Positions 4,917 to 63,895 of a stretch of 64,000 nucleotides of DNA are shown here, piece by piece. Numbering within the stretch: position 1 is the first letter of the stretch; every line of letters begins with the position of its first letter. The stretch spans positions 11,736 to 75,735 of the forward strand of contig CAKOMW010000002.1 in NCBI GenBank assembly GCA_934096805.1, read 5' to 3'. The notes beneath the pieces are model-generated. The model was not told the DNA's origin. It made no database searches and saw only the letters and a program-made list of their open reading frames with translations. The translations under genes and the position numbers were made by a program. Source of the DNA: an uncultured Bacilli bacterium. Lineage in GTDB: Bacteria; Bacillota_I; Bacilli_A; RF39; UBA660.

Positions 4917-6724
4917 AAAACAATCAAAACATTATAGAAACCACAACCAAAGAAGAATATAAACAAAAAAACAATATCAAAACCGAAGAAGAATTATTCA
5001 ACAACTTGCTAAATAATTTAAAAAACGAAATAAAATCCATATTTCAAGGAACAATATCCGAAAATAAATACCAAATAGTAATAAAAACCCTTAACTATTT
5101 AGATGAAACCCTAGAACAAATAGAACATAAAAAACAAATAAAAACAAAATATTTAAGAAAAATAAAACAAGACACCATAACCTACTTAAAGGAAACAGAT
5201 AAAACAAAACCAAAAGCCAATAAAAAAATAGAAATATATCAAAAAATAATAAATAGATTGGAAAACATTGAACTAAATATAAACTATAATAAAAACAAAG
5301 AAACAATCGATAACTATAACATCATAAAATATGTTCTAATCGACCTAAAAGACGCAAATATCAGTCAAAAAATAGTAAAAGAATATGGATACTTAATAAA
5401 TGCTTATAATCAAACCAATCAAAACATTATAAACCAATTGGTAAATGAATACATAAAAGAACTATATAACTACATGGACATTGAAATAAACTACGACCTA
5501 TGCTACTATGAATCAATAATAAACGCTATCTTTGAAAACAAAAAAATTATAATCGAAGAAAAGACACTAAAAGAAAACACAAATAAATGCTTAAAAATAT
5601 TAAAACATAACAAAAACATCGAAGAGAAAAAAAGAATAAAAATGTTTTATTGGATAAACCATTTAATAAACATGTTGAATGATAAAGAATACATTCCAAC
5701 AATAGAAACAATAAATAACCTCTATAATATCAGATTTTATTTTAAACAAGCTCTCCACGAGGAAGGAAGAATCTACTACCTGACTAATCTTACTAAAACA
5801 CCAACAAATCAAGAAGATTACATAATATCGATTGACGACGAAGACAACTATAATAGAGATGATGCTGTATCAATAGAAAAAGAAAATGAAAACTATAACC
5901 TAAAAATATACATATCAGACCCTAACACTTTCTGTACAATGGACTCTCTATTAATAAAAGAAGCTAGAAAAAGATCCCAAAGCATCTACCTAAGTGATAG
6001 AACAATAGAAATATTTCCTGAAAGTATAATAGAGAACTACTTATCATTAAATGAAGAAAAACAAAGACTAGCTAGAATTTATAACTACAAAATATCAGAA
6101 GACGGACAAATAATAGACTTCTACATAGAAAAATCACCAATCATTGTAAGCAAAAACCTATCATATGAAAAAGTGAACAACAACCAGTACAAAGACAAAA
6201 AAATAAACGAGACCTTAGAACAACTACACGAAATAAGAAACATTATAACCAAAAACTATAACATAAAAAATCAATCAAACAGCGAAACCTTAATTGAATC
6301 CCTAATGGTCTTTAATAATATTAACGTTGCAAGATACTTTAAACAACACAATCTCCCATTAATATATAGAAATTTCGAACTAAAAAAAATAAAAAATTTC
6401 GAAGACATCGATCCTCAAGACGAAAATACCAAAAAAATTATAAAAATAATAAATTCAATCACCAATCAAGCATACTTTTCAGACAAAGTATTTCACCACG
6501 ATGGTATAAATGAAGAATATTATTGCTATAGCACTTCGCCTAACAGAAGATACGCCGACATTCTAGTAAATGAATGTGAAGACACTCTATATTTTAATAA
6601 ACCAACCAACAAAGAATACTATGCCTTTGAAGAATACTTAAAAAAAGAAGCAGATTACTTAAATCAAAAAAACCTCCAAATAGCAGAATACTACACAAGA
6701 TATGCAAGAACCTTAAAAAGATAA
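4913..6724 (+). CDS. RNB-domain exoribonuclease (RNase II/R family)
   Basis: SIDDEDNYNRDDAVSIE...IYISDPNTF matches the RNB catalytic DxxxxDDA / HIADV-like region. 603 aa. ATGA overlap with the dnaI stop. Confidence 0.6.
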   Translation: MKNNQNIIETTTKEEYKQKNNIKTEEELFNNLLNNLKNEIKSIFQGTISENKYQIVIKTLNYLDETLEQIEHKKQIKTKYLRKIKQDTITYLKETDKTKPKANKKIEIYQKIINRLENIELNINYNKNKETIDNYNIIKYVLIDLKDANISQKIVKEYGYLINAYNQTNQNIINQLVNEYIKELYNYMDIEINYDLCYYESIINAIFENKKIIIEEKTLKENTNKCLKILKHNKNIEEKKRIKMFYWINHLINMLNDKEYIPTIETINNLYNIRFYFKQALHEEGRIYYLTNLTKTPTNQEDYIISIDDEDNYNRDDAVSIEKENENYNLKIYISDPNTFCTMDSLLIKEARKRSQSIYLSDRTIEIFPESIIENYLSLNEEKQRLARIYNYKISEDGQIIDFYIEKSPIIVSKNLSYEKVNNNQYKDKKINETLEQLHEIRNIITKNYNIKNQSNSETLIESLMVFNNINVARYFKQHNLPLIYRNFELKKIKNFEDIDPQDENTKKIIKIINSITNQAYFSDKVFHHDGINEEYYCYSTSPNRRYADILVNECEDTLYFNKPTNKEYYAFEEYLKKEADYLNQKNLQIAEYYTRYARTLKR

Positions 6725-6731
6725 AAAATGC

Positions 6732-6760
6732 TTGAAAAAAGTATTTTTTTGTTATAGAAT
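6732..6760 (+). promoter_or_regulatory. Sigma-A-like promoter (TTGAAA-N17-TAGAAT) of variable-family copy 1
   Basis: -35 TTGAAA at 6732-6737, 17-bp spacer, -10 TAGAAT at 6755-6760. The same architecture is conserved upstream of copies 2, 4 and 5. Confidence 0.45.
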
Positions 6761-6874
6761 TAGACTATAGAAAACTAAAAAGGAGGACAGGTGTAATTGT
6801 AGGTTATAATTATAAACCACATAATATCGGGTAAAATAATTCGAAAATTTACATTTATACACCTAACAAGCAAT

Positions 6875-8461
6875 ATGATAAACAAACATTCGTCTGGGGG
6901 GGGGCAAAATACTAACAACCCTATAAATAAAAAAAGAAAGATACTATACTTAGTAGCCTTATCAATGTTTAGCATAGGTATAATAACACTAAGCACTTAT
7001 GCACTATATAATAATGAACTAATAACAGGTATAAATAAAATAGAAACAGGACAAGTAAAAATGTCCTACACAGAAGTAAATGAACTAAGCTTAAACAACG
7101 CCCTACCTATGAAAGATGAAGAAGGTAAAAAACTTAACAATTACTTTGATTTTACTGTGTCATCATATATAAAAACAAAAACAGATGATAACAATGAACA
7201 AGTATTAAAATATAATATAATCCTAGAACCAACATATTTTTCCGCACTAGGACAATCAGCTTCCTTACAAGAAATATCTGCATCAGAAATGGCAGAATAT
7301 TATCGTATAATTAATTCGGTTTATCACTTCAAAACATATCTAACAAAAATAGATGACAATGGAACAGAAACAGAAGTAGCAAAGCCAATTAACGTTGAAG
7401 ATTTAAATGGAGTTATAACCCAACAACAAGAAACATTCAAAAACGCCAAAGAACCAGTAACAACAAAGTATAGGCTAAGAATTTGGATAGACTATGAAGT
7501 AGATGCCAACAGCATAGTATGGAAAAAATTAGAACAACTTGGAGGAGCAACAATAAAATTTAGAGTAAACGTAAACACAGACAAAATAGAGCAAACTACT
7601 ACTATACCAATACTTAATCTACCAGTAGGAACAAGCCAAATAAAAAAAGTAACTCATGGTATGAGCTATACTTTACAAGTAGATAATAGGTTTGCAACAG
7701 AATATAGATATCAAGGAACCGATCCTAACAACTACATAAAATTTAATAATGAACTATGGAGAATAATCGGAGTAATCCCAACCGATGATGGAACAGGTAA
7801 AGTAGAAAATAGATTAAAAATAATAAGAAATGAATCAATCGGAGAAATGCCATGGAATGCTTGTGAGTATTCAAATATTGGTAGTGATAGTAATCCTGTA
7901 TATACATGCAATGACACAGGTAAATTCCTAAATGACTGGACTGGATCAACCTTAAACACTTACTTAAACACAACTTATTACAATTCCCTAACCAAAGAAG
8001 CAAGAGACATGATAGGAACAACAAAGTATTATCTTGGAAGTTCAGGCGATGAATTTAATGATTACATATGGGAAGCAGAAAGGTCAAACGAAAGTAAAAA
8101 CTATTATTCATATAATGGTGTGAATAATCCCTTGTCAGAAACAAATAAAATATCACTAGTTTATCCAAGTGATATATATTACGGTTATAACTATGAAATT
8201 CCAATTTTATTATATCAAGCAGACTTATTATCTGTTTTTGAATATTCTAAGATTTTAAAATTGAATTGGAGCAAAACTGATTATGTAAAGACAAGCGTCG
8301 ATAGTAGCCATACGATCAACTTTAATGATGATATTCATGTAGATATCTTTGATAATATGGCAACCCCTTATGTGTATCCAGTCCTAAGTCTCTCATCTAA
8401 TGTAAAAATATCCGGAGGAACTGGAACAAGCACTGACCCTTATACCTTATCCCTTCAATAA
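6875..8461 (+). CDS. Poly-G phase-variable surface protein family, copy 1 (full-length, in frame). N-terminal signal anchor, conserved central WRIIG..PTxD..G.VENR..II module, C-terminal LSLSSNVKISGG.GTS..PYTLS.
   Basis: Continuous 528-aa ORF. N-terminal TM ILYLVALSMFSIGIITLSTYALY. Paralogous to the ORFs at 36.5, 44.6 and 60.2 kb. Confidence 0.7.
   Translation: MINKHSSGGGQNTNNPINKKRKILYLVALSMFSIGIITLSTYALYNNELITGINKIETGQVKMSYTEVNELSLNNALPMKDEEGKKLNNYFDFTVSSYIKTKTDDNNEQVLKYNIILEPTYFSALGQSASLQEISASEMAEYYRIINSVYHFKTYLTKIDDNGTETEVAKPINVEDLNGVITQQQETFKNAKEPVTTKYRLRIWIDYEVDANSIVWKKLEQLGGATIKFRVNVNTDKIEQTTTIPILNLPVGTSQIKKVTHGMSYTLQVDNRFATEYRYQGTDPNNYIKFNNELWRIIGVIPTDDGTGKVENRLKIIRNESIGEMPWNACEYSNIGSDSNPVYTCNDTGKFLNDWTGSTLNTYLNTTYYNSLTKEARDMIGTTKYYLGSSGDEFNDYIWEAERSNESKNYYSYNGVNNPLSETNKISLVYPSDIYYGYNYEIPILLYQADLLSVFEYSKILKLNWSKTDYVKTSVDSSHTINFNDDIHVDIFDNMATPYVYPVLSLSSNVKISGGTGTSTDPYTLSLQ
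6896..6904 (+). repeat. Homopolymeric G tract, n=9, in codons 8-10 of copy 1 (in-frame, ON)
   Basis: ATG ATA AAC AAA CAT TCG TCT GGG GGG GGG CAA AAT... reads through into the 528-aa ORF. Confidence 0.8.
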
Positions 8462-15220: not shown

Positions 15221-15475
15221 TAAAATAAGAAAACCTTAAATGATATAAACCATATTTTGGAAATACCATAAAAAAAGGTTTTTTTATATATAATTATGTT
15301 AAATTTACTATAATAACAAAAAAGTACATCATCAAAAAAACAAACAAATGTATCGAAAATCTTGACACATTATTCTTTACTATGATATAGTAAAAACATA
15401 AAAGAAAAATTAAACAAAAAACCTATTTTACTTTTGTTGTAATTACTTTTGTAGTATACTTAAAGAGGTGATAAA

Positions 15476-44412: not shown

Positions 44413-45886
44413 ATGAACAAATATTCGTCTGGGGGGGGGGCAAAATACTACTAACCCTATAAATAAAAAAGGGAAAACAATAAAAATAATATCAATAATA
44501 ATACTTTTAATACTAATAGTAATTAGTATATCTTTTGCATTAGGTAATATTGATATAAATATACTAGGAAGAAGAAATATAAAAATATCTAAATGCGAAC
44601 TAGATATAAACTTTAAAGAAAGTGAAGAACTAATGCTAGTAAGTAAATATCCCATATCAAAAGAAGAAGCATTAAAGTATAATGCAAAAGAAATAAATAT
44701 AACAAACAATTCTACATGTGATACAGCTTATTATAAAGTAACAATAAAAGACTTAGTAAATTCATCTATAAATAAAGATAAGATTAACTATCAAGTAATA
44801 GATAAAAGTACAAATACAGAAACAATAGATAAAAACCCAGATAACTTTAATATAAGTGATTCACTTACTAAAGGAAATACAAAAACATACACAATAAGAC
44901 TATGGATAGATGAAAGTGCCACCAATACAGACTTATTTATAAATGGGGATACAACAAAACTAATAGAATATAAATATGCACTTAACATAGAATCAAGTGA
45001 TGAAAAATTAAAAGGACCAGATTATGCTTTAGAGTTTGCCCAAGCAAATGCAGGACAAAATGGTTTAGAACAAATAACTCATACAATAGATAATACACTT
45101 CAAGTAGATAATAAATTTGCAACAGAATACAGATACAGAGGAGGAGATTCTGTAGTAAAGAACTATGTAACATTTAATAATGAAACATGGAGAATAATCG
45201 GAATAATACCAACTGAAGATACAAATGGTAATGTAGAAAATAGAATTAAGATAATAAGGGATACTTCAATAGGAAATAAATATTGGAATACAATTAAAGA
45301 TACAACAACTAATTCATATAATAACTGGGTAACAGGAACATTAAATACATACTTAAATAATGATTATTATAATACATTAAGTACTGATGCCAAGAATATG
45401 ATAGGAACAACAAAATATTATCTTGGAGGATATGATTCTTCTAATAAAACCTCCGACATAATGTGGCAATATGAAAGAAAGAATGATGCCAATAGAAGTG
45501 GCTACTATTATGGAACTAATCCAATAATGCAAAGTGATGCAAATAAAAAGATAGCAATAATGTATGCCAGTGATTATGGATATGGAGCATCAACAAGTTG
45601 TACGAATACATTGAAATATTATGCTGGCATAAATTATGATTCAAGTACAGAATGTAATAGAACAAATAATTGGTTAGATAAAAGTCAAGCCATATGGTTA
45701 CTTTCTCAGATTACAGCCGATTCCTACGGCGCTTTCAATATGAGCTCGAGTGGCTATGTCGATAACGGCGGCAACGTCGGCAACGACGAGTATGCAGTCC
45801 GCCCAGTCCTAAGTCTGTCATCTAACGTAAAGATTTCAGGTGGAGAAGGCACTTCGAGTAGTCCTTACACCTTATCAGAAAAATAA
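44413..45886 (+). CDS. Poly-G phase-variable surface protein family, copy 3 (frameshifted in the G tract). The start is 13 nt after the pilin-like gene, with SD AAAGGAGGA.
   Basis: About 590 bp of the 5' end are nearly identical to copies 2 and 4. C-terminal VRPVLSLSSNVKISGGEGTSSSPYTLSEK. Confidence 0.65.
44431..44440 (+). repeat. Homopolymeric G tract, n=10, in copy 3 (OFF; G9 would be ON)
   Basis: ATG AAC AAA TAT TCG TCT G10 CAAAATACTACTAA gives a TAA stop. Removing one G fuses to the 417-aa ORF at 44633. Confidence 0.8.
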
Positions 45887-46027
45887 TGTTATCAACGATT
45901 TATAAAAAAGAAACCATACAAAACTAGGCTCTATATTTTTTGATGGGTCAATTTCAAATAAGGCTTCACGGTACAGTGGTGTCTTTTTTATATAATAACT
46001 TCGTATTTTATTGATTTTGTGAACACC

Positions 46028-46091
46028 TATTTTACATTTTGGCTAATTTTTATTTTACAATTTGGACAAAAATCATTTTACATTTTGGCCA
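46028..46091 (+). repeat. Three direct repeats of about 19 bp (TATTTTACATTTTGGCTAA-like) spaced 22-23 bp, upstream of gatCAB
   Basis: tattttacattttggctaa / tattttacaatttggacaa / cattttacattttggccaa. Confidence 0.4.
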
Positions 46092-46257
46092 ACTTTAATC
46101 TTTATGAATAGTAATCATTTCATTAATATATATTTTTATCACATTACTTTTAGAAATAGTACATTATAATCATACAAACAGTTTTCTTTACACTAAAAAC
46201 TCATTTTTCTTTAATTATTCTTTCATACATGCTATAATATATAGGACGGAGGTAAGT

Positions 46258-51974: not shown

Positions 51975-52823
51975 ATGAAACGCGAAGTAAAAAAAATATA
52001 CAAAAACTTTCTAGATGCTTTAAAAACACCAGAATTAATGATTCTACCAGGACAATTAGCATTCTATATCCTTATGTCAATTATTCCTATAATTGCCATA
52101 ATCTCTTTAGTAGCATCATACTTAATAAACAACTTTGATTTATACAAAACAATAAGCTCAATTGTCCCAGATGTTCTAGCATCAACAATTATAAGACTAA
52201 TCGACAATACCACAATAGGAAACGTCGCTTTCATTATAATATGCTACATCATTTTAGGTTCAAATGGCCCCTCTGCCATCATAATATCATCAAATGAAAT
52301 ATATGGTCTAAAACAACCAAACTTTATAAAGCTAAAAATAAAAGCATGCCTCATGACAATGATAATCGTGCTTTTATTCCTATTTATTATAATAATTCCT
52401 CTCTTAGGGAACATTATTCTAAAAAACATTAGCTATTACTTCCCCATGGCAGGAAGCATAAAAAATTATTATCCTATAATAACAATCTTAAAATACCTAG
52501 GCTCATTCTTAGTAATATACATGGGAATAAAACTCTTATATACACTTGGGCCTAACAAAACCATAAAAAGCAAACACACAACTCTAGGTTCAATCTTTAC
52601 AACCCTAGGCTTCATCATAACAACAGAGCTATTTGCCTTTTATATATCAAACATCGCAAGATATGACAAACTATATGGCAACTTTGCCAATATATTAATA
52701 TTACTTATTTGGATCTATCTACTAGCATACATCTTTGTCGTAGGAATGGCCATCAATGTAAATAGATACCAAAACAAGGAGTGTCAAAATGAAAAGGAAA
52801 AAAATAACAAATCTAAAAAATAA
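51975..52823 (+). CDS. YihY/BrkB-family membrane protein
   Basis: LPGQLAFY.LMSIIP motif and six TM segments. Confidence 0.65.
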   Translation: MKREVKKIYKNFLDALKTPELMILPGQLAFYILMSIIPIIAIISLVASYLINNFDLYKTISSIVPDVLASTIIRLIDNTTIGNVAFIIICYIILGSNGPSAIIISSNEIYGLKQPNFIKLKIKACLMTMIIVLLFLFIIIIPLLGNIILKNISYYFPMAGSIKNYYPIITILKYLGSFLVIYMGIKLLYTLGPNKTIKSKHTTLGSIFTTLGFIITTELFAFYISNIARYDKLYGNFANILILLIWIYLLAYIFVVGMAINVNRYQNKECQNEKEKNNKSKK

Positions 52824-54813
52824 TAAAATTGTTAAAGAAACACTAAATTTCTTCAAACAAACAAAAAAATTTATAAAAGAAAATAAACTAGTATTCATCT
52901 ATGTTATTGGAACTCTTTTAAACGGAATAATTCTAAGAGCCCTAACAACCAAAAACATCCTAGCCATATCACCAATCTTTGCAGATCTATTTGTTACAAT
53001 TTTCTTTGCTTCATTTTACTTTGTAATAAAGAAAAAATGGCGCTTCTTATACCTTTATACAATGATAATTCTATCAACCCTAATCTGCATCGCCAACATC
53101 GTCTATTATCATTACTATAGTTCTTTCATTTCCATAACATTCATATCATTTGCCCTAACTAATCGTGAAACTGGAAATACAAACGTTGTTGGAAATCTAA
53201 TTGAACTAAAATACCTATTACCAATATGGTTACCAATAGTATTCTATATACTAAATAAAAAAGAAAAGAAAAAAGAACCAGTTATTAAAAAACTAACCAA
53301 AAAAGGTAGTATGCGTATCATGTATATTTGGATGACAGTATTCTTTTTTCTGTTAATATCAACTCTAAAAGGAGTCGACTATGGTAGATTCTATAGTCAA
53401 TGGAATAGGGAATACTTAGTAAACAAATTTGGCGTATACTTATATCAAATAAATGATGTTATAAAAAGCGTTGAACCCAAAATGGCAACCCTTTTTGGTT
53501 CAGACAAAGTCTACAAAGAAGTAAATGAATTCTACAAAACAAGAAGTGATAAAAAAGACTATAAAAATGAATATACTAATATTTTTAAAGGAAAAAATGT
53601 CATAGCAATCCATTCTGAAAGCATGCAAAACGTCCTTATTAATATGAAAATAAATGGTCAAGAAATAACACCAAATCTAAACAAACTAACCAAAGAATCT
53701 CTGTACTTCAGTAACTTCCATTCCCAAGTTAGTTTTGGAACAAGTAGTGACACAGAATTCACTCTTGCCACTTCACTTTTACCTGTAAAAAGCGGTTCTG
53801 TATTCATAAACTATTCAGACAGAAAATACATTTCCATGTACCAACTACTAAAAGAACAAGGATACTATACATTCAGTATGCACGCTAACACCGGAGATTT
53901 TTGGAATCGAAACATCATGCATAAAAAACTAGGATACGACAAATTCTATGAAAAACAGTCATACCAAGAAGACGAAAAAGTAGGTTTTGGTCTATCAGAC
54001 AAATCATTCATGGAACAATCAGTAAACTACATAAAACAAATAAATGAAGAACATCAAAAATACTATGGAACCCTTATTACTCTAAGCAATCATACACCAT
54101 TTGCCTACAATGAACTATTTGAAAAATTAGACCTTACCATGACCAAAGACGGTGTCAAATATCCATACTTAACAGACACTAAACTCGGAGACTACCTAGT
54201 ATCAGCCCACTATGCCGACAAACAACTAGGCTATCTAATTGAACTATTAGAAAAAGAAAACCTTTTAGAAAACACAGTCATCATGATATACGGTGACCAC
54301 GATGCTAGAATATCAACATCCCTTTGGAATAGATACTATAACTACGATTATAAAACAAACGATGTCCTTGATAAAACCGACGAAGACTATAAAGAATTAG
54401 ACTACTACTGGCAAGAACTAAACAGAAGTACACCACTTATAATATGGACAAAAGACCAAAACTTTAAAGAAAACTATGCCAAAGAAGTAAAAACAGCAAC
54501 CGGAATGTACGATGTTTTCCCAACCCTAGGCAACATGCTTGGAATATACAGCAAATACACACTAGGAAGTGACGTCATGAGTAAAAAAGACAATCTCGTA
54601 GTATTTCCAAACGGTAACTTTCTAACAAACTATGTCTACTACAACAACAATAAAAGTCAATACAAACTATTAAAAAATGTTCCATTAAGCGAAGACTACA
54701 TCAAAGAAAAAAAACAACAAGCAGACCAAATACTAGAAATGTCCAACAACATAATAGTCTATAACTATTTCAAAAAAGAACTATCAAATAGTGAATATAT
54801 TAAGGAGAAATAA
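52789..54813 (+). CDS. LTA-synthase (LtaS)-family sulfatase-like membrane protein
   Basis: Five N-terminal TM helices plus an extracellular alkaline-phosphatase-superfamily domain (HSESMQ...T.S..H). 674 aa. Confidence 0.7.
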   Translation: MKRKKITNLKNNKIVKETLNFFKQTKKFIKENKLVFIYVIGTLLNGIILRALTTKNILAISPIFADLFVTIFFASFYFVIKKKWRFLYLYTMIILSTLICIANIVYYHYYSSFISITFISFALTNRETGNTNVVGNLIELKYLLPIWLPIVFYILNKKEKKKEPVIKKLTKKGSMRIMYIWMTVFFFLLISTLKGVDYGRFYSQWNREYLVNKFGVYLYQINDVIKSVEPKMATLFGSDKVYKEVNEFYKTRSDKKDYKNEYTNIFKGKNVIAIHSESMQNVLINMKINGQEITPNLNKLTKESLYFSNFHSQVSFGTSSDTEFTLATSLLPVKSGSVFINYSDRKYISMYQLLKEQGYYTFSMHANTGDFWNRNIMHKKLGYDKFYEKQSYQEDEKVGFGLSDKSFMEQSVNYIKQINEEHQKYYGTLITLSNHTPFAYNELFEKLDLTMTKDGVKYPYLTDTKLGDYLVSAHYADKQLGYLIELLEKENLLENTVIMIYGDHDARISTSLWNRYYNYDYKTNDVLDKTDEDYKELDYYWQELNRSTPLIIWTKDQNFKENYAKEVKTATGMYDVFPTLGNMLGIYSKYTLGSDVMSKKDNLVVFPNGNFLTNYVYYNNNKSQYKLLKNVPLSEDYIKEKKQQADQILEMSNNIIVYNYFKKELSNSEYIKEK

Positions 54814-59802: not shown

Positions 59803-59907
59803 AAAAGTTGAAATAGATTAATGATTAATTCTATTTCTTTTTTTCATATACTAAACTACATAATAGTGATAATAAGCGAAATCAAGAAGATAAAAAACAA
59901 AAGGTAC

Positions 59908-59936
59908 TTGAAAAAAGTAAAATTTTGATATAAAAT
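59908..59936 (+). promoter_or_regulatory. Promoter TTGAAA-N17-TAAAAT of copy 4
   Basis: Conserved with the other copies. Confidence 0.4.
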
Positions 59937-60015
59937 TAAGTTATAGAAAACTAAAGAGGAGGACAGGTGTAACTACAAAAATTCATGCATCATGTACAAA
60001 CACCTAATAAGTAAC

Positions 60016-61613
60016 ATGGTAAACAAATATTCGCTAGGGGGGGGGGGCAAAATACTACTAACCCTATAGATAAGAAAGGGAAAACAATAAAAATAATATC
60101 AATAATAATACTTTTAATACTAATAGTAATTAGTATATCTTTTGCATTAGGAAATATTGATATAAATATACTAGGAAGAAGAAATATAAAAATATCTAAA
60201 TGCGAACTAGATATAAACTTTAAAGAAAGTGAAGAACTAATGCTAGTAAGTAAATATCCCATATCAAAAGAAGAAGCATTAAAGTATAATGCAAAAGAAA
60301 TAAATATAACAAACAATTCTACATGTGATACAGCTTATTATAAAGTAACAATAAAAGACTTAGTAAATTCATCTATAAATAAAGATAAGATTAACTATCA
60401 AGTAATAGATAAAAGTACAAATACAGAAACAATAGATAAAAACCCAGATAACTTTAATATAAGTGATTCACTTACTAAAGGAAATACAAAAACATACACA
60501 ATAAGACTATGGATAGATGAAAGTGCAACCAATACTGACTTATTTATAAATGGAGATACGACAAAACCAATGGAATACAGATATGCATTAAACATAGAAT
60601 CAAGTGATGAATATATGAAAGTAGACTATGCATTAACCTTTGCTAAGTCAAAAGTAGGAACAGACGGACTAGAAATAGTAACCCATGAAATAGATGACAC
60701 ACTTCAAGTAGATAATAAGTTTGCTACAGAATACAGATATAGAGGAGGAGATTCCATAGTAAATAACTATGTAACATTCAATAATGAAACATGGAGAATA
60801 ATAGGAATAATTCCAACAGAAGATACAGACGGTAATGTAGAAAACAGATTTAAGATAATAAAAGATGAATCTATTGGATATTATGTTTGGGATAGTGATA
60901 CCGAAATAACATATGATTATGAAATAAATAATAATTTTAATCTTTTGAATAACAATAATAATGATATAATCACCCCAAATGATTTAATTAACCATAATGA
61001 AAAATATGAAACTATACAGACAGCACCTGATTTGGGAACAAAAAAATGTACTACTTGTAGTAATAATTGGGCTAGACCTAGTGCATTGAATACATATTTG
61101 AATAGTACATATTATAATTCAATAAATACTAATTCAAAAAATATGATAGGAACAACAAAATATTATCTTGGAGGATATAATACTTCTGATATAACAAATG
61201 ATGTAATGTGGCAATATGAAAGAAAGAATGATGTCAACAGAAGTGGTTATTATTCTGATACAAATCCAGTAATGTCAAATGATGCATCTAAGAGTATTGC
61301 ATTAATGTATGCCAGTGATTATGGGTATGGAGCCTCAAAAGAGTGTCCACAAACACTAAATAACTATAAGAACGATACATTATGTAAAATGACAAATAAT
61401 TGGTTAGATAAGTCTCTAAAGGAATGGCTACTTCCACAGTATCCAGATGGTGGTAGATTGTTTTATCTTGAGTCCAGCAACGTCGAACATTACAACGGTT
61501 GGACTCTGACTTACTATTCTTTTGCAGTTCGTCCAATTTTATCTTTATCATCCAACGTAAAAATTTCAGGTGGAGAAGGAACTTCTTCTAATCCATACAC
61601 TCTGTCACAATAA
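60016..61613 (+). CDS. Poly-G phase-variable surface protein family, copy 4 (frameshifted in the G tract)
   Basis: 5' about 590 bp nearly identical to copies 2 and 3. Divergent middle. C-terminal FAVRPILSLSSNVKISGGEGTSSNPYTLSQ. Confidence 0.65.
60037..60047 (+). repeat. Homopolymeric G tract, n=11, in copy 4 (OFF; G9 or G12 would be ON)
   Basis: ATG GTA AAC AAA TAT TCG CTA G11 CAAAATACTACTAACCCTATAG gives a TAG stop. The offset to the 60240 ORF is 224 nt, which is 2 mod 3. Confidence 0.8.
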
Positions 61614-61667: not shown

Positions 61668-61900
61668 AAGCACGTTCCTTGAACGTCGGCTTCCTAGTTT
61701 TGTAGAAAGCGACGCTTCTCTATATCAGAGAGACGTCGCTATTGTATTACATATAAAGTTTATGTATTAACATGATGATTATATATAATTGCAATAGGGA
61801 GATTATAAAAAACATTAAGATTGTACAATCTTTCTTGCTCATCATAATAACCACCTCACTTTCATAGAAAGTAAAGCCGACGCCCAAAGATACGTGCTAA
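61668..61900. repeat. GC-rich imperfect inverted repeats (AGCACGT..CGTCGGCTT / AAGCCGACG..ACGTGCT) plus a 13-bp palindromic hairpin, flanking a 150-bp AT-rich segment between copies 4 and 5
   Basis: 61668-61710 is reverse-complementary to 61861-61898 (16 matching positions in two blocks). Hairpin GCGACGCTTCTCT-ATAT-CAGAGAGACGTCGC at 61709-61739. Confidence 0.4.
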
Positions 61901-62060
61901 TATCACTATATACTATATAGAAACACAATGCAAATGAGCAAAAATGACATTTGGTATAAAAAATAGTGCACAAAATCAAGAATTGCCCTAAGGCAAAAAC
62001 AATTTTTAATATAAAAAAGGATACTAAAAAGTACTATTTTGTATAAATTAAAAAAATTTC

Positions 62061-62089
62061 TTGAAAAAGTATTTTTTTTGTTATAGAAT
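62061..62089 (+). promoter_or_regulatory. Promoter TTGAAA-N17-TAGAAT of copy 5
   Basis: Identical geometry and near-identical sequence to the copy 1 promoter. Confidence 0.4.
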
Positions 62090-62168
62090 TAAGTTATAGA
62101 AAACTAAAGAGGAGGACAGGTGTAAACAAAAAGATATATGCATGATACGCACACACCTAATAAGTAAT

Positions 62169-63747
62169 ATGGTAAACAAATATTCGTCGGGGGGGGGGGC
62201 GGAATACTAGTAATAAAGTAAAACAAAACCCCTTATTTAAAGATATAAACGACTATAATAAATATCTATTAAGTTTAATAGGTATTCTTTTTCTTGTAAT
62301 AACAGGAGTAATCTCTTATAATCTTACAAATGCATCATATGCAAAGTGGAGTAGTAGTATAGAGTCTAAGAATGTGTTGAAGCTTAGTGTGCAATCAGGT
62401 CTTGATAAAAGTGGTGCGAATAAACCAGAACTTACAAATAATATGATACCAGTATATTATGATAGTACAAATGCAGTATGGAGAAAAGCAGATGCTAATA
62501 ATAGTAAAGAAAATTATAAATGGTATGATTATGATAATAAGATGTGGGCAAATGCAGTAACTGTTACAGAAACTAATAGGAGTACTTATCTAAGTGCAAA
62601 TGTAGGTACAGAAATAAATATGAATGATATAAATACAATGTGGGTATGGATACCAAGGTATACTTATACATATTTAAATACAAATACACCACAAGAAATA
62701 AATATAAAGTTTGAAAAAGAAACAAATAGTACAGGCACAATAAAATGTACTGATAATGTATCAGGAAGTGGTACAACATCACAAACATGTACAGATACAA
62801 CAAATGGTTCTTTAGTTGCAGGAACATCTACATATACCCACCCAGCATTTACCTTTGGAGATAAAGAACTAAAAGGATTATGGGTAGGTAAGTTTGAGAG
62901 TAGTGCAACAACAATACCAACAAGTACTTCAACAACAGAATCTACAGTAATAATAAAACCAAATGTACAATCATTAAGATATAAAGCAGTATCGTATTTC
63001 TTTCGCGATGCCCGACAAATGGAGAAAGCAAATAATGTATATGGCTTTCCACAAAGTAGTAGTACAACATTTAATTGGAATGGAGAATTAAATGGAGATA
63101 CAAATAATATAGATATCCATATGATGAAGAATACAGAATGGGGAGCAGTAACATACTTATATCATTCTAAATATGGAAGATGCACAAATGGTAAATGTGA
63201 AGAGCTAACAATAAATAACTGTAATACTTATACAACAGGAATTGGAGCAGACTCAGTAAGTGCAAGTTATTCATCAACAACATGTACAACAGATAAGAAT
63301 AAATATAATGGAGAAAGTGGAGTAAAAGCGTCAACTACAGGAAATGTATATGGTGTGTATGATATGTCTGGAGGCCCATGGGAATATACAATGGGTAACA
63401 TGGTAAACTCCTCTAATCAATTTTATACATTATCTGCATCAAACTGGAGTACAACAACATATCCATTAGCAAAGTATTATGATAGTTATACATATAATGG
63501 TAGTTATACAACATATACAAGAGGAAGATTAGGAGATGCAATAGTAGAAATGAGTCCTTCATCTAGTTCTTATACTTCGTGGTATTCAGATTTCGCCTAC
63601 TTCCCGTACTCGTCCAATTCTTGGTTCACTCGTGGGGGTCACTACAATGATGGTCCGGACGCGGGCGTTTTCGGTTTCAGCTACGAGGTTGGTATTGCGG
63701 ACCATTACCACTCGTTTCGGGCCTCGCTCATCGCACAGGCCTCTTAA
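62169..63747 (+). CDS. Poly-G-switched membrane-anchored protein with a C-terminal FGE-sulfatase (formylglycine-generating-enzyme-like) domain. It shares only the promoter/leader/MVNKYSSGGG module with copies 1-4. Frameshifted in the G tract.
   Basis: With G10 the frame gives a TM anchor YLLSLIGILFLVITGVISY continuous with ORF 62374-63747. NVYGVYDMSGGPWEYT and WFTRGGHY...FR motifs resemble the FGE/SUMF1 family. Confidence 0.55.
62189..62199 (+). repeat. Homopolymeric G tract, n=11, in copy 5 (OFF; G10 or G13 would be ON)
   Basis: ATG GTA AAC AAA TAT TCG TCG G... The T to G change at the tract edge lengthens it. A TAA follows 7 codons later. The offset to the GTG at 62374 is 205 nt, which is 1 mod 3. 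Confidence 0.8.
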
Positions 63748-63895
63748 GCCTGTTTAATATAAATAATTTTAATATTTTCATAAACTTGTTTATTTTCATT
63801 AATCAATATTTTATGTTATTAATAGTATATTATAGAACTTAAATTAAAAAAAATAGGGTGGTTTATATTACATATTTAAGTTCTAGGAGGTATAT

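Follow-up and report, generated by a model that had tools for sequence, protein, structure and literature searches.

The window analysed here (64,000 nucleotides of contig CAKOMW010000002.1, from an uncultured Bacilli bacterium of the RF39 lineage UBA660; all positions are those of the window) contains five genes headed by a poly-G tract. The fifth, copy 5 (62045-63747, + strand), raises two questions: what kind of protein stands behind the tract, and what does the tract do to it? An earlier reading made from the letters alone—hereafter the sequence-only reading—had seen in copy 5 a portable on/off module attached to an unrelated cargo, a membrane-anchored protein resembling the formylglycine-generating enzyme (FGE). 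We find that copy 5 is best explained, with rather good confidence, as a contingency gene: it would encode a membrane-anchored or secreted surface protein whose ectodomain is that of a variable protein of diversity-generating retroelements (DGRs), in the FGE subtype of the C-type lectin fold. In what follows the related loci and contigs that we compared bear L-numbers (L001, L002 and so on) and the related proteins P-numbers.

C-terminal variable region and retroelement cassettes of homologues

The last 168 nt of copy 5 look like a DGR variable region (VR), a feature that the sequence-only reading, which proposed only an FGE-like domain there, had missed. This segment has 16% A and 54% G+C, for window averages of 46% A and ~29% G+C; it is poorer in A than any other stretch of the 64 kb, the closest of which stands at 24% A. 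Codons devoid of A represent 32 of its 56 codons but 65 of the 402 codons of the gene body, and codons containing CG 9 of 56 versus 6 of 402. At the protein level, the invariant residues W471, Y472, D474, F478, W485, R488, G489, G499, F501, F503, G508 and R517 alternate with columns whose entropy exceeds 3 bits. The hypervariable columns (n = 24) are mostly occupied by S, Y, N, G, T and D; K, E, Q, M and W fall to 4.5% there, versus 23% in the variable columns elsewhere, as expected of NNY codons derived from AAY. In the codon alignment of relatives the variation is of the NNC/NNT type and lies between invariant A-free codons, and the DNA blocks TTC CCG, TCG TCC, TGG TTC, CGT GG, GGC GCT TTC and TCG TTT CGG are common to 4-7 members of the lineage, with NNC-type codons between them.

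Homologues of copy 5 are the targets of recognizable DGRs. With the targets of L094, L096 and L098, copy 5 shares 32-36% identity over ~460 residues (BLASTP, E 1e-46 to 1e-54). L094 and L096-L098 carry complete cassettes, in the order target, template repeat (TR), small MutS_I-like open reading frame (ORF), bAvd, and a reverse transcriptase (RT) of 340 aa (RVT_1). In intact cassettes the VR/TR mismatches fall on template adenines in 17 of 21, 16 of 18 and 11 of 13 cases. L096 and L098, which come from different samples, have identical RTs and identical TRs yet different VRs, which suggests that these elements are active. Further clean VR/TR pairs are found in L055 and L092.

A nearer relative is the 388-kb assembly scaffold L099, whose paralogue is 83% identical to copy 5. 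It has a TR (15340-15470) located ~325 nt 3' of two tandem targets and built on the same DNA scaffold as copy 5, which can be written as the pattern GACGCCAACTT[CT]CCGAACTCGTCCAAC...TCGTTTCGGGCCTCGCT. This TR reads GAC GCC AAC TTT CCG AAC TCG TCC AAC TCT TGG TTC CAA CGT GGG GGT AAC TAC AAT AAT GGT ACG AAC ... TCG TTT CGG GCC TCG CTT, and the variable region of copy 5 ends, like it, in TCGTTTCGGGCCTCGCT, a candidate GC-rich end of the IMH type. Aligned with this TR, a relic that belongs to another genome, copy 5 differs at 16 of the 29 adenines and at 13 of the 73 remaining positions (Fisher p=4e-4). For each of the two VRs carried by L099 the figures are 18 of 29 and 9-10 of 73 (p ~1e-6).

The hairpin spanning the stop codon of copy 5 (Table 1) was considered as a DGR target hairpin; since it is not conserved in L002, L083 and L084, its significance is doubtful.

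Active or frozen state of the variable region

The VR of copy 5 was probably written by a DGR and is probably now frozen, a reading that we rank, from the sequences compared, ahead of a VR still diversifying. The frozen state is suggested because the only cassette of the cognate type that we found, in close relatives, is decayed. In L099 the TR lacks ~7 codons, Avd is 76 aa long and the RT is a C-terminal remnant of 42 aa; the same relic is present in L100, and in L101 transposase fragments stand in its place. The gene bodies of L099 and L100 are 99.15% identical (0.85% different), and both VRs and the relic are 100% identical. The exact copy 5 protein, VR included, occurs on 3-4 contigs from at least two samples.

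It is possible, if rather unlikely, that the VR of copy 5 is instead still rewritten in trans by an intact DGR located elsewhere in the genome, so that hypermutation and ON/OFF switching would be combined. Intact cassettes of the same RT family are indeed common in low-GC gut Bacillota (4539 RT matches, of which L094 and L096-L098 are examples), but the only cassettes with the copy 5 scaffold that we found are decayed or lost (L099, L100, L101). The VRs of the copy 5 lineage share one DNA scaffold and its rare A-free codons at different loci, as if one TR served many targets; however, those of the strains L099 and L100 are identical although the gene bodies differ, and the VR of copy 5 recurs unchanged from one sample to another. 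Around the ~90 target loci no RT was detected within 10 kb (YxDD motif scan, and tblastn with the bRT and Avd of Bordetella phage BPP-1), which makes targets distant from the RT the rule in this family. On the other hand no TR came out of the viral or Joint Genome Institute (JGI) contigs scanned: the DNA pattern of the copy 5 scaffold had no match in viral_contigs and the TR-specific pattern none in the JGI metagenomes, where a relaxed pattern returned one further VR (L090) and five chance matches in GC-rich contigs.

A permissive blastn search of 82 related loci for TRs detected two only: in L020 a degenerate relic containing indels, in L055 a clean TR with a C-terminal fragment of RT after it. 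A TR-like match in L035 turned out to be a tandem paralogue, and P0009 is a non-syntenic paralogue. The A-tolerant TR scan found none in L002, nor in L001, which is 100% identical to the window over their overlap of 3518 nt. The window itself is core chromosome (mutS, RNase R, bipA, alr, ezrA, pcrA, PBP, glmM, htrA, sufB, gatAB, queA, tgt, proS), and Pfam scans of 28 of its ORFs returned only housekeeping-type genes.

The cassettes of relatives show two other particularities. In L092:1416-2440 and L093:728-1752 an (AT)n run just 5' of the YMDD motif has one AT unit too many, which splits the DGR RT; the L094 version is intact, and RT ORFs of ~120 aa limited to the C-terminus exist in several other species (P0122-P0129); these split or truncated RTs could represent a recurrent inactivation or a second switch. 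Besides, a small ORF of 121-125 aa with a MutS_I-domain match lies between TR and bAvd (L092:705-1073, L094:5302-5667, L096:5290-5667), and is probably an accessory gene of this DGR clade.

The poly-G tract

Runs of at least 9 G are five in the 64 kb, all on the + strand, and the 9-G pattern has 11 overlapping matches for 0.01 expected. In copy 5 the tract lies early in the coding sequence, 20 nt from the ATG, and its length sets the reading frame. In silico, the ATG frame stops after 14 codons with the assembled 11 G, so that copy 5 is OFF; with 10 or 13 G it joins the 62374-63747 ORF and gives a 525/526-aa product. Copies 1-4, unlike copy 5, are in frame with 9 or 12 G. Only copy 1 is in frame as assembled in the window; of the six copies known in this genome, one is ON and five are OFF. 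Among 15 further module-headed genes of relatives, with tracts of 9-11 G, 3-4 are ON and ~11 OFF. Among homologues of copy 5, that of L002 (83% identical) has 9 G and is ON, and those of L083 and L084 have 10 G and are OFF. Since the in-frame tract length differs between copies (9, 10 or 11 G), they would constitute independent switches. Both states are thus seen among paralogues and homologues, with tracts of 9-11 G, and the copy 5 locus itself is seen with 11 G only. We infer from these lengths and frames that the tract behaves as a contingency switch.

The glycines encoded by the tract belong to the N-terminal tail and precede a helix predicted at residues 31-53 by the AlphaFold2 (AF2) model; being placed ahead of the hydrophobic anchor, they should allow changes of three G that leave the ectodomain untouched.

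It is improbable that copy 5 is a frameshifted pseudogene, or that its G count is an assembly error, the tract having then no switching role. Copy 5 is out of frame as assembled and so are most module-headed genes, but its ORF is open over 457 codons 3' of the tract, and the long ORF is equally intact in all 20 other tract-headed genes examined. The position of the tract is moreover kept across species while its in-frame length varies, and close homologues are found ON (L002) as well as OFF (L083, L084). Homopolymers are prone to errors; nevertheless the independent assembly L001 has the same 11 G.

Fold and relatives of the cargo protein

The two motifs on which the FGE resemblance had been proposed, YGVYDMSGGPWEY and RGG...FR, are present in the product of 62374-63747. 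The cargo is also, as had been claimed, different from that of other copies: BLASTP of copy 5 against copy 4 aligns residues 1-19 only (E 2e-4), and hhalign of the two families gives a probability of 1.6%. By contrast, the search against the FGE-sulfatase family (PF03781) that was to support the enzyme did not: copy 5 has no match to any Pfam family at E<=1, and NCBIfam and PHROGs searches of its product returned none either. The copy 5 family is very large, with more than 7400 matching proteins in uncultured low-GC Bacilli of animal guts and several paralogues per genome.

The AF2 model of copy 5, built on an alignment of 48 relatives, has a predicted local distance difference test (pLDDT) of 80-93 over residues 80-340 and a predicted template modelling score (pTM) of 0.75. 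Foldseek found for it one significant match in the PDB, the DGR variable protein TaqVP of Thermus aquaticus (5VF4, E 7e-4), and TaqVP is also the only PDB match of the family sequence profile (E 0.066). In these structure and profile comparisons the DGR variable proteins outscore the FGE-family enzymes by far. In PMC6328139, TaqVP, TvpA and Mtd are assigned to the FGE subtype among C-type lectin folds, their variable region lying at the far C-terminal end. The likeness to FGE thus stands at the level of the fold and falls at the level of the sulfatase-maturing function: judging from the model and profiles, the nearest relatives of the cargo are most likely ligand-binding variable proteins, not enzymes.

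That the cargo is an FGE/SUMF1-type sulfatase-maturing domain, headed by an autonomous mobile on/off cassette, therefore seems very improbable. PF03781 does match 4 of the 48 relatives, weakly (best E 0.005), and it is a precomputed annotation of the distant homologue P0104; but copy 5, besides its lack of Pfam match, has no cysteine in its last 153 residues (373-525, the last one being C372), and the catalytic cysteine pair of FGE lies in the C-terminal part of the domain (human FGE). A hypervariable C-terminus, for its part, fits a binding site and not a conserved active site. A protein with a Sulfatase domain is encoded in the window at 52789-54813; however, its N-terminal extension of ~270 residues gives it an architecture that looks LtaS-like, a putative reading. 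The mobile half of this explanation is taken up below with the 5' module.

Concerning the N-terminus, a SipW/TasA-type signal peptide was considered from an ...SYAxFS-like motif and from the Peptidase_S26 gene of the L094 operon, and no model supports it. In L094:309-4636 the DGR target closes a gene run opened by this Peptidase_S26 (signal peptidase) homologue, which may bear on N-terminal processing. The copy 5 cargo is also found without G tract, its N-terminus then being an ordinary signal peptide (L094, L096), the same anchor under a different head (P0003), or a type IV pilin-like segment (M..KGFTLIELL...; L020:277-3117, L055:8963-11230). With the latter arrangement, some species may expose the variable lectin domain on a pilus or pseudopilus.

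The other cargo family has a GC-rich, A-poor patch before a conserved C-terminal tail, at 45694-45830 in the window (copy 3), L013:8984-9120, L010:5392-5525 and L090:5383-5515. Invariant codons alternate there with NNY-type variable codons among homologues, and no TR was seen. From this codon pattern the copy 3-type cargo may contain another class of DGR variable region, placed like the first behind the poly-G switch. The structure predicted for this family has a pLDDT of 47, too low for use.

The shared 5' module and its reassortment

The promoter TTGAAA-N17-TAGAAT noticed by the sequence-only reading is present at 62061-62089 and matches 10 of 12 consensus positions of the sigma-70 type; the leader, the first codons and the G tract are in common with other copies, as it had stated (86% identity between 62076-62199 and 59923-60046). 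The module is shorter than the ~200 bp then proposed: the shared block covers ~155 nt (62045-62199), plus 20-30 weakly similar nt after the tract. The whole leader is common to copies 1, 4 and 5 only, copy 2 having the promoter only and copy 3 a different upstream region.

The AGGAGG of the leader is its sole Shine-Dalgarno-like site; it stands ~55 nt 5' of the ATG and is directly followed by a GTG-TAA mini-frame (62110-62171). The same closing stem is predicted, with different loops, in five leaders: copies 1, 4 and 5, L002 and L084. Folding energies of the leaders are no better than those of shuffles, copy 1 excepted, and an Rfam search of the leader had no match. Such a stem, if formed as predicted, could bring the Shine-Dalgarno-like site nearer to the start codon. 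The corresponding leader stretches of other copies are at 59957-60018 and 6781-6877.

Three leader types, three anchor types and two cargo families are found in varying combinations. The short leader belongs to copies 2 (promoter part only), 4 and 5, the long one to copy 1 and to a sixth copy of the same genome, L001:12574, ~9 kb past the end of the window (10 G, OFF). This sixth copy associates the long copy 1-type leader with a copy 5-type anchor (86% identical) and a copy 4-type cargo (54% identical), and its alignment with copy 5 shows 92-93% identity for 160 nt and divergence after. As far as its sequence can tell, it directly illustrates reassortment inside a single genome. L010:4537 likewise fuses a copy 5-type anchor to a copy 4-type cargo. 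In L102 a copy 2-type leader precedes a copy 5-type cargo, and the identity to copy 5 changes in patches along the gene, between 71 and 100%. Copies 2-4 are 98-100% identical just 3' of the tract.

The module thus heads genes with different cargos, drawn in this genome and in related ones from no fewer than two unrelated families. On this point the sequence-only reading was right, and it is what favours a mobile cassette. Portable in the sense of shared and shuffled among cargos, the module has however no apparent mobility of its own: no delimiting repeats and no recombinase or transposase lie nearby, its flanks contain only low-complexity AT-rich repeats, and copy 5 is surrounded by proS, a further module gene, a gene for a small membrane protein and a ger operon. 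Homologous recombination among paralogues, using the 21 nt and the G tract as one junction, would explain the mosaic better than a self-mobile cassette.

Two groups of repeats were observed outside the module: a 17-nt inverted repeat, relatively GC-rich (61676-61692 / 61874-61890, 82% complementary), in the 450-nt spacer between copy 4 and the copy 5 promoter, and three imperfect direct repeats with a 23-nt period (ATTTTG..ACA..TTTTAC-like) downstream of copy 3 (46014-46102).

Weighing of the proposed explanation

It is hardly credible that the A-poor, GC-rich 3' end of copy 5 results from horizontal acquisition or from a Gly/Ser/Tyr-rich composition: the segment is compositionally foreign (GC 54% in a 29% GC genome) and no TR accompanies it in the window and the 9.7 kb downstream, but its differences fall preferentially on the adenines of a same-scaffold TR, its invariant residues are encoded by A-free codons, and homologous segments in relatives form demonstrable VR/TR pairs next to an RT.

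Several points nonetheless weigh against reading copy 5 as a switched DGR variable protein. No TR, Avd or RT came to light in the 64 kb of the window or the 9.7 kb that follow (A-tolerant TR scan, YxDD scan, tblastn with bRT and Avd). The L099 TR cannot be the actual template of copy 5, because 13 mismatches fall outside adenines. All assemblies carrying the exact copy 5 sequence have 11 G, including the independent L001, and the length of a homopolymer in an assembly is a consensus, with error possible. In the AF2 model the pLDDT is below 50 at residues 486-507, a part of the variable region. Finally the NCBIfam signal-peptide models have no match, and the cleavage of the N-terminal segment is only putative.

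Table 1. Features of the copy 5 locus and of the related cassette (positions in the window unless a locus is named)
Feature	Position	Strand	Basis
Promoter and leader block common to copies	62045..62125	+	83-84% identity to 59892-59972 and 6716-6796 (copies 4 and 1)
Leader: Shine-Dalgarno-like AGGAGG (62110-62115), then predicted stem AGGUGU (62118-62123) / ACACCU (62153-62158)	62110..62158	+	Folding prediction
Start and first codons, ATG GTA AAC AAA TAT TCG TC	62169..62188	+	21 nt before tract 81-90% identical among all copies
Poly-G tract, 11 G; proposed slipped-strand frame switch, OFF as assembled	62189..62199	+	Sequence; in-silico frames
Rest of N-terminal tail and membrane anchor/signal segment, residues 11-68 of ON product	62200..62373	+	Open in frame with 62374-63747; AF2 helix 31-53
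Conserved ectodomain, including core of FGE-subtype C-type lectin fold (predicted)	62374..63579	+	
DGR-type variable region, residues 471-525, to stop codon, 168 nt	63580..63747	+	Composition, codon pattern, L099 TR comparison
Hairpin ACAGGC-ctcttaa-GCCTGT across stop codon; weak candidate DGR target-site hairpin	63735..63753	+	Read from sequence
Decayed DGR cassette 3' of two tandem copy 5-type targets, then MuF_C-domain gene; in L101 replaced by transposase fragments	L099:15340-16348, L100:9029-10028, L101:8813-9630		

Comparison with known systems

Copy 5 resembles TaqVP (PDB 5VF4), TvpA (2Y3C) and Mtd (1YU0) in that its variable region occupies the C-terminal extremity, where hypervariable positions are separated by invariant residues of the RGG and (G/S)FR types, and in that its homologues are targets of cassettes composed of TR, Avd and RT. 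It departs from them by an identity of only 7-18%, by a large extra N-terminal portion of the ectodomain, by its N-terminal membrane anchor and poly-G frame switch, and by the absence of TR/RT nearby, the cassette being decayed in close relatives. Mtd is a phage-tail protein and TvpA a lipoprotein. From FGE/SUMF1 (PF03781) copy 5 is distinguished by the three features already given: no Pfam match, no C-terminal cysteines and a hypervariable C-terminus.

Simple-sequence contingency loci with a repeat in the 5' coding or leader-peptide region are known from opa of Neisseria (CTCTT) and from the poly-G genes of Campylobacter jejuni, Haemophilus and Helicobacter. As in Neisseria opa and the Campylobacter poly-G loci, the repeat of copy 5 comes just after the start, its length sets the frame of a surface protein, the paralogues would switch independently and most of them are OFF. 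Unlike these loci, the host is a gut member of the Bacilli with low GC and a small genome, the cargo is a DGR-type variable protein, and the tract is part of a 155-nt promoter-leader-head block common to unrelated cargo families. The Vlp and Vsa surface protein families of mycoplasmas have conserved 5' regions and signal peptides in common. They share with copy 5 the combination of a conserved promoter, leader and signal with divergent surface parts and, as proposed here for copy 5, homopolymer ON/OFF control and recombination between paralogues; but the tract of copy 5 is a poly-G in the coding region, its proteins are apparently not lipoproteins and their diversity is of the DGR type, not made of tandem repeats.

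In gut Bacteroides, DGRs diversify pilus adhesins, and a TaqVP-like class has been defined (bioRxiv 10.1101/2024.11.15.621889). In both cases gut commensals diversify ligand-binding C-type lectin domains at their surface, and some copy 5 homologues have pilin-like N-termini; the hosts of copy 5 belong however to a different phylum and use a different type of pilus or anchor. Phase variation is not mentioned in the Bacteroides study (0 occurrences; bioRxiv 10.1101/2024.11.15.621889). A full-text literature search, judged by titles and abstracts, found no gene that combines a DGR-type variable region with a repeat-based frame switch. On our analysis each component taken separately—DGR variable protein, homopolymer contingency switch, shared 5' region—is already known.

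Proposed mechanism and implications

In the mechanism that we propose, the sigma-70-type promoter and the shared leader would drive transcription, and translation from the ATG at 62169 would run for 20 nt before entering the G tract. Whether ribosomes then keep the frame of the cargo would depend on G gained or lost by strand slippage at replication, 10 or 13 G meaning ON and 11 OFF. The last 56 codons, since they bear the signature of adenine-directed mutagenic retrohoming, would have been written by a DGR from a template repeat; with the variable region frozen, the cell would vary its surface mainly through the choice of the pre-diversified paralogue that is in frame. Homologous recombination at the conserved junction would bring the 5' module, common to several surface-protein families, into new combinations with anchors and cargos: the mosaic of its parts is observed, and recombination is the mechanism that we infer from it.

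DGR hypermutation and simple-repeat phase variation are the two best-known programmed routes to bacterial surface diversity, and have been studied separately. Copy 5 bears the signatures of both in one gene of a family of more than 7400 members. If our explanation is true, it would provide a concrete case for how expression switching and the diversification of binding sites cooperate, and another for the fate of a diversified repertoire once the retroelement is lost. It would also correct a likely annotation error: proteins labelled “FGE-sulfatase-like” or hypothetical are most probably variable proteins of the adhesin or receptor type.

A broader idea, tentative though possible, is that of a two-tier surface variation in small-genome gut Bacilli: DGRs write, or wrote, binding sites into many C-type lectin paralogues, each controlled by a poly-G switch within a shared and recombining 5' module, and the copy 3-type cargo may add a second class of DGR targets under the same switch. 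If this is true, a clonal population would own an archive of pre-diversified binders and expose one or a few of them stochastically, and after decay of the retroelement the contingency switching among frozen variants would replace hypermutation.

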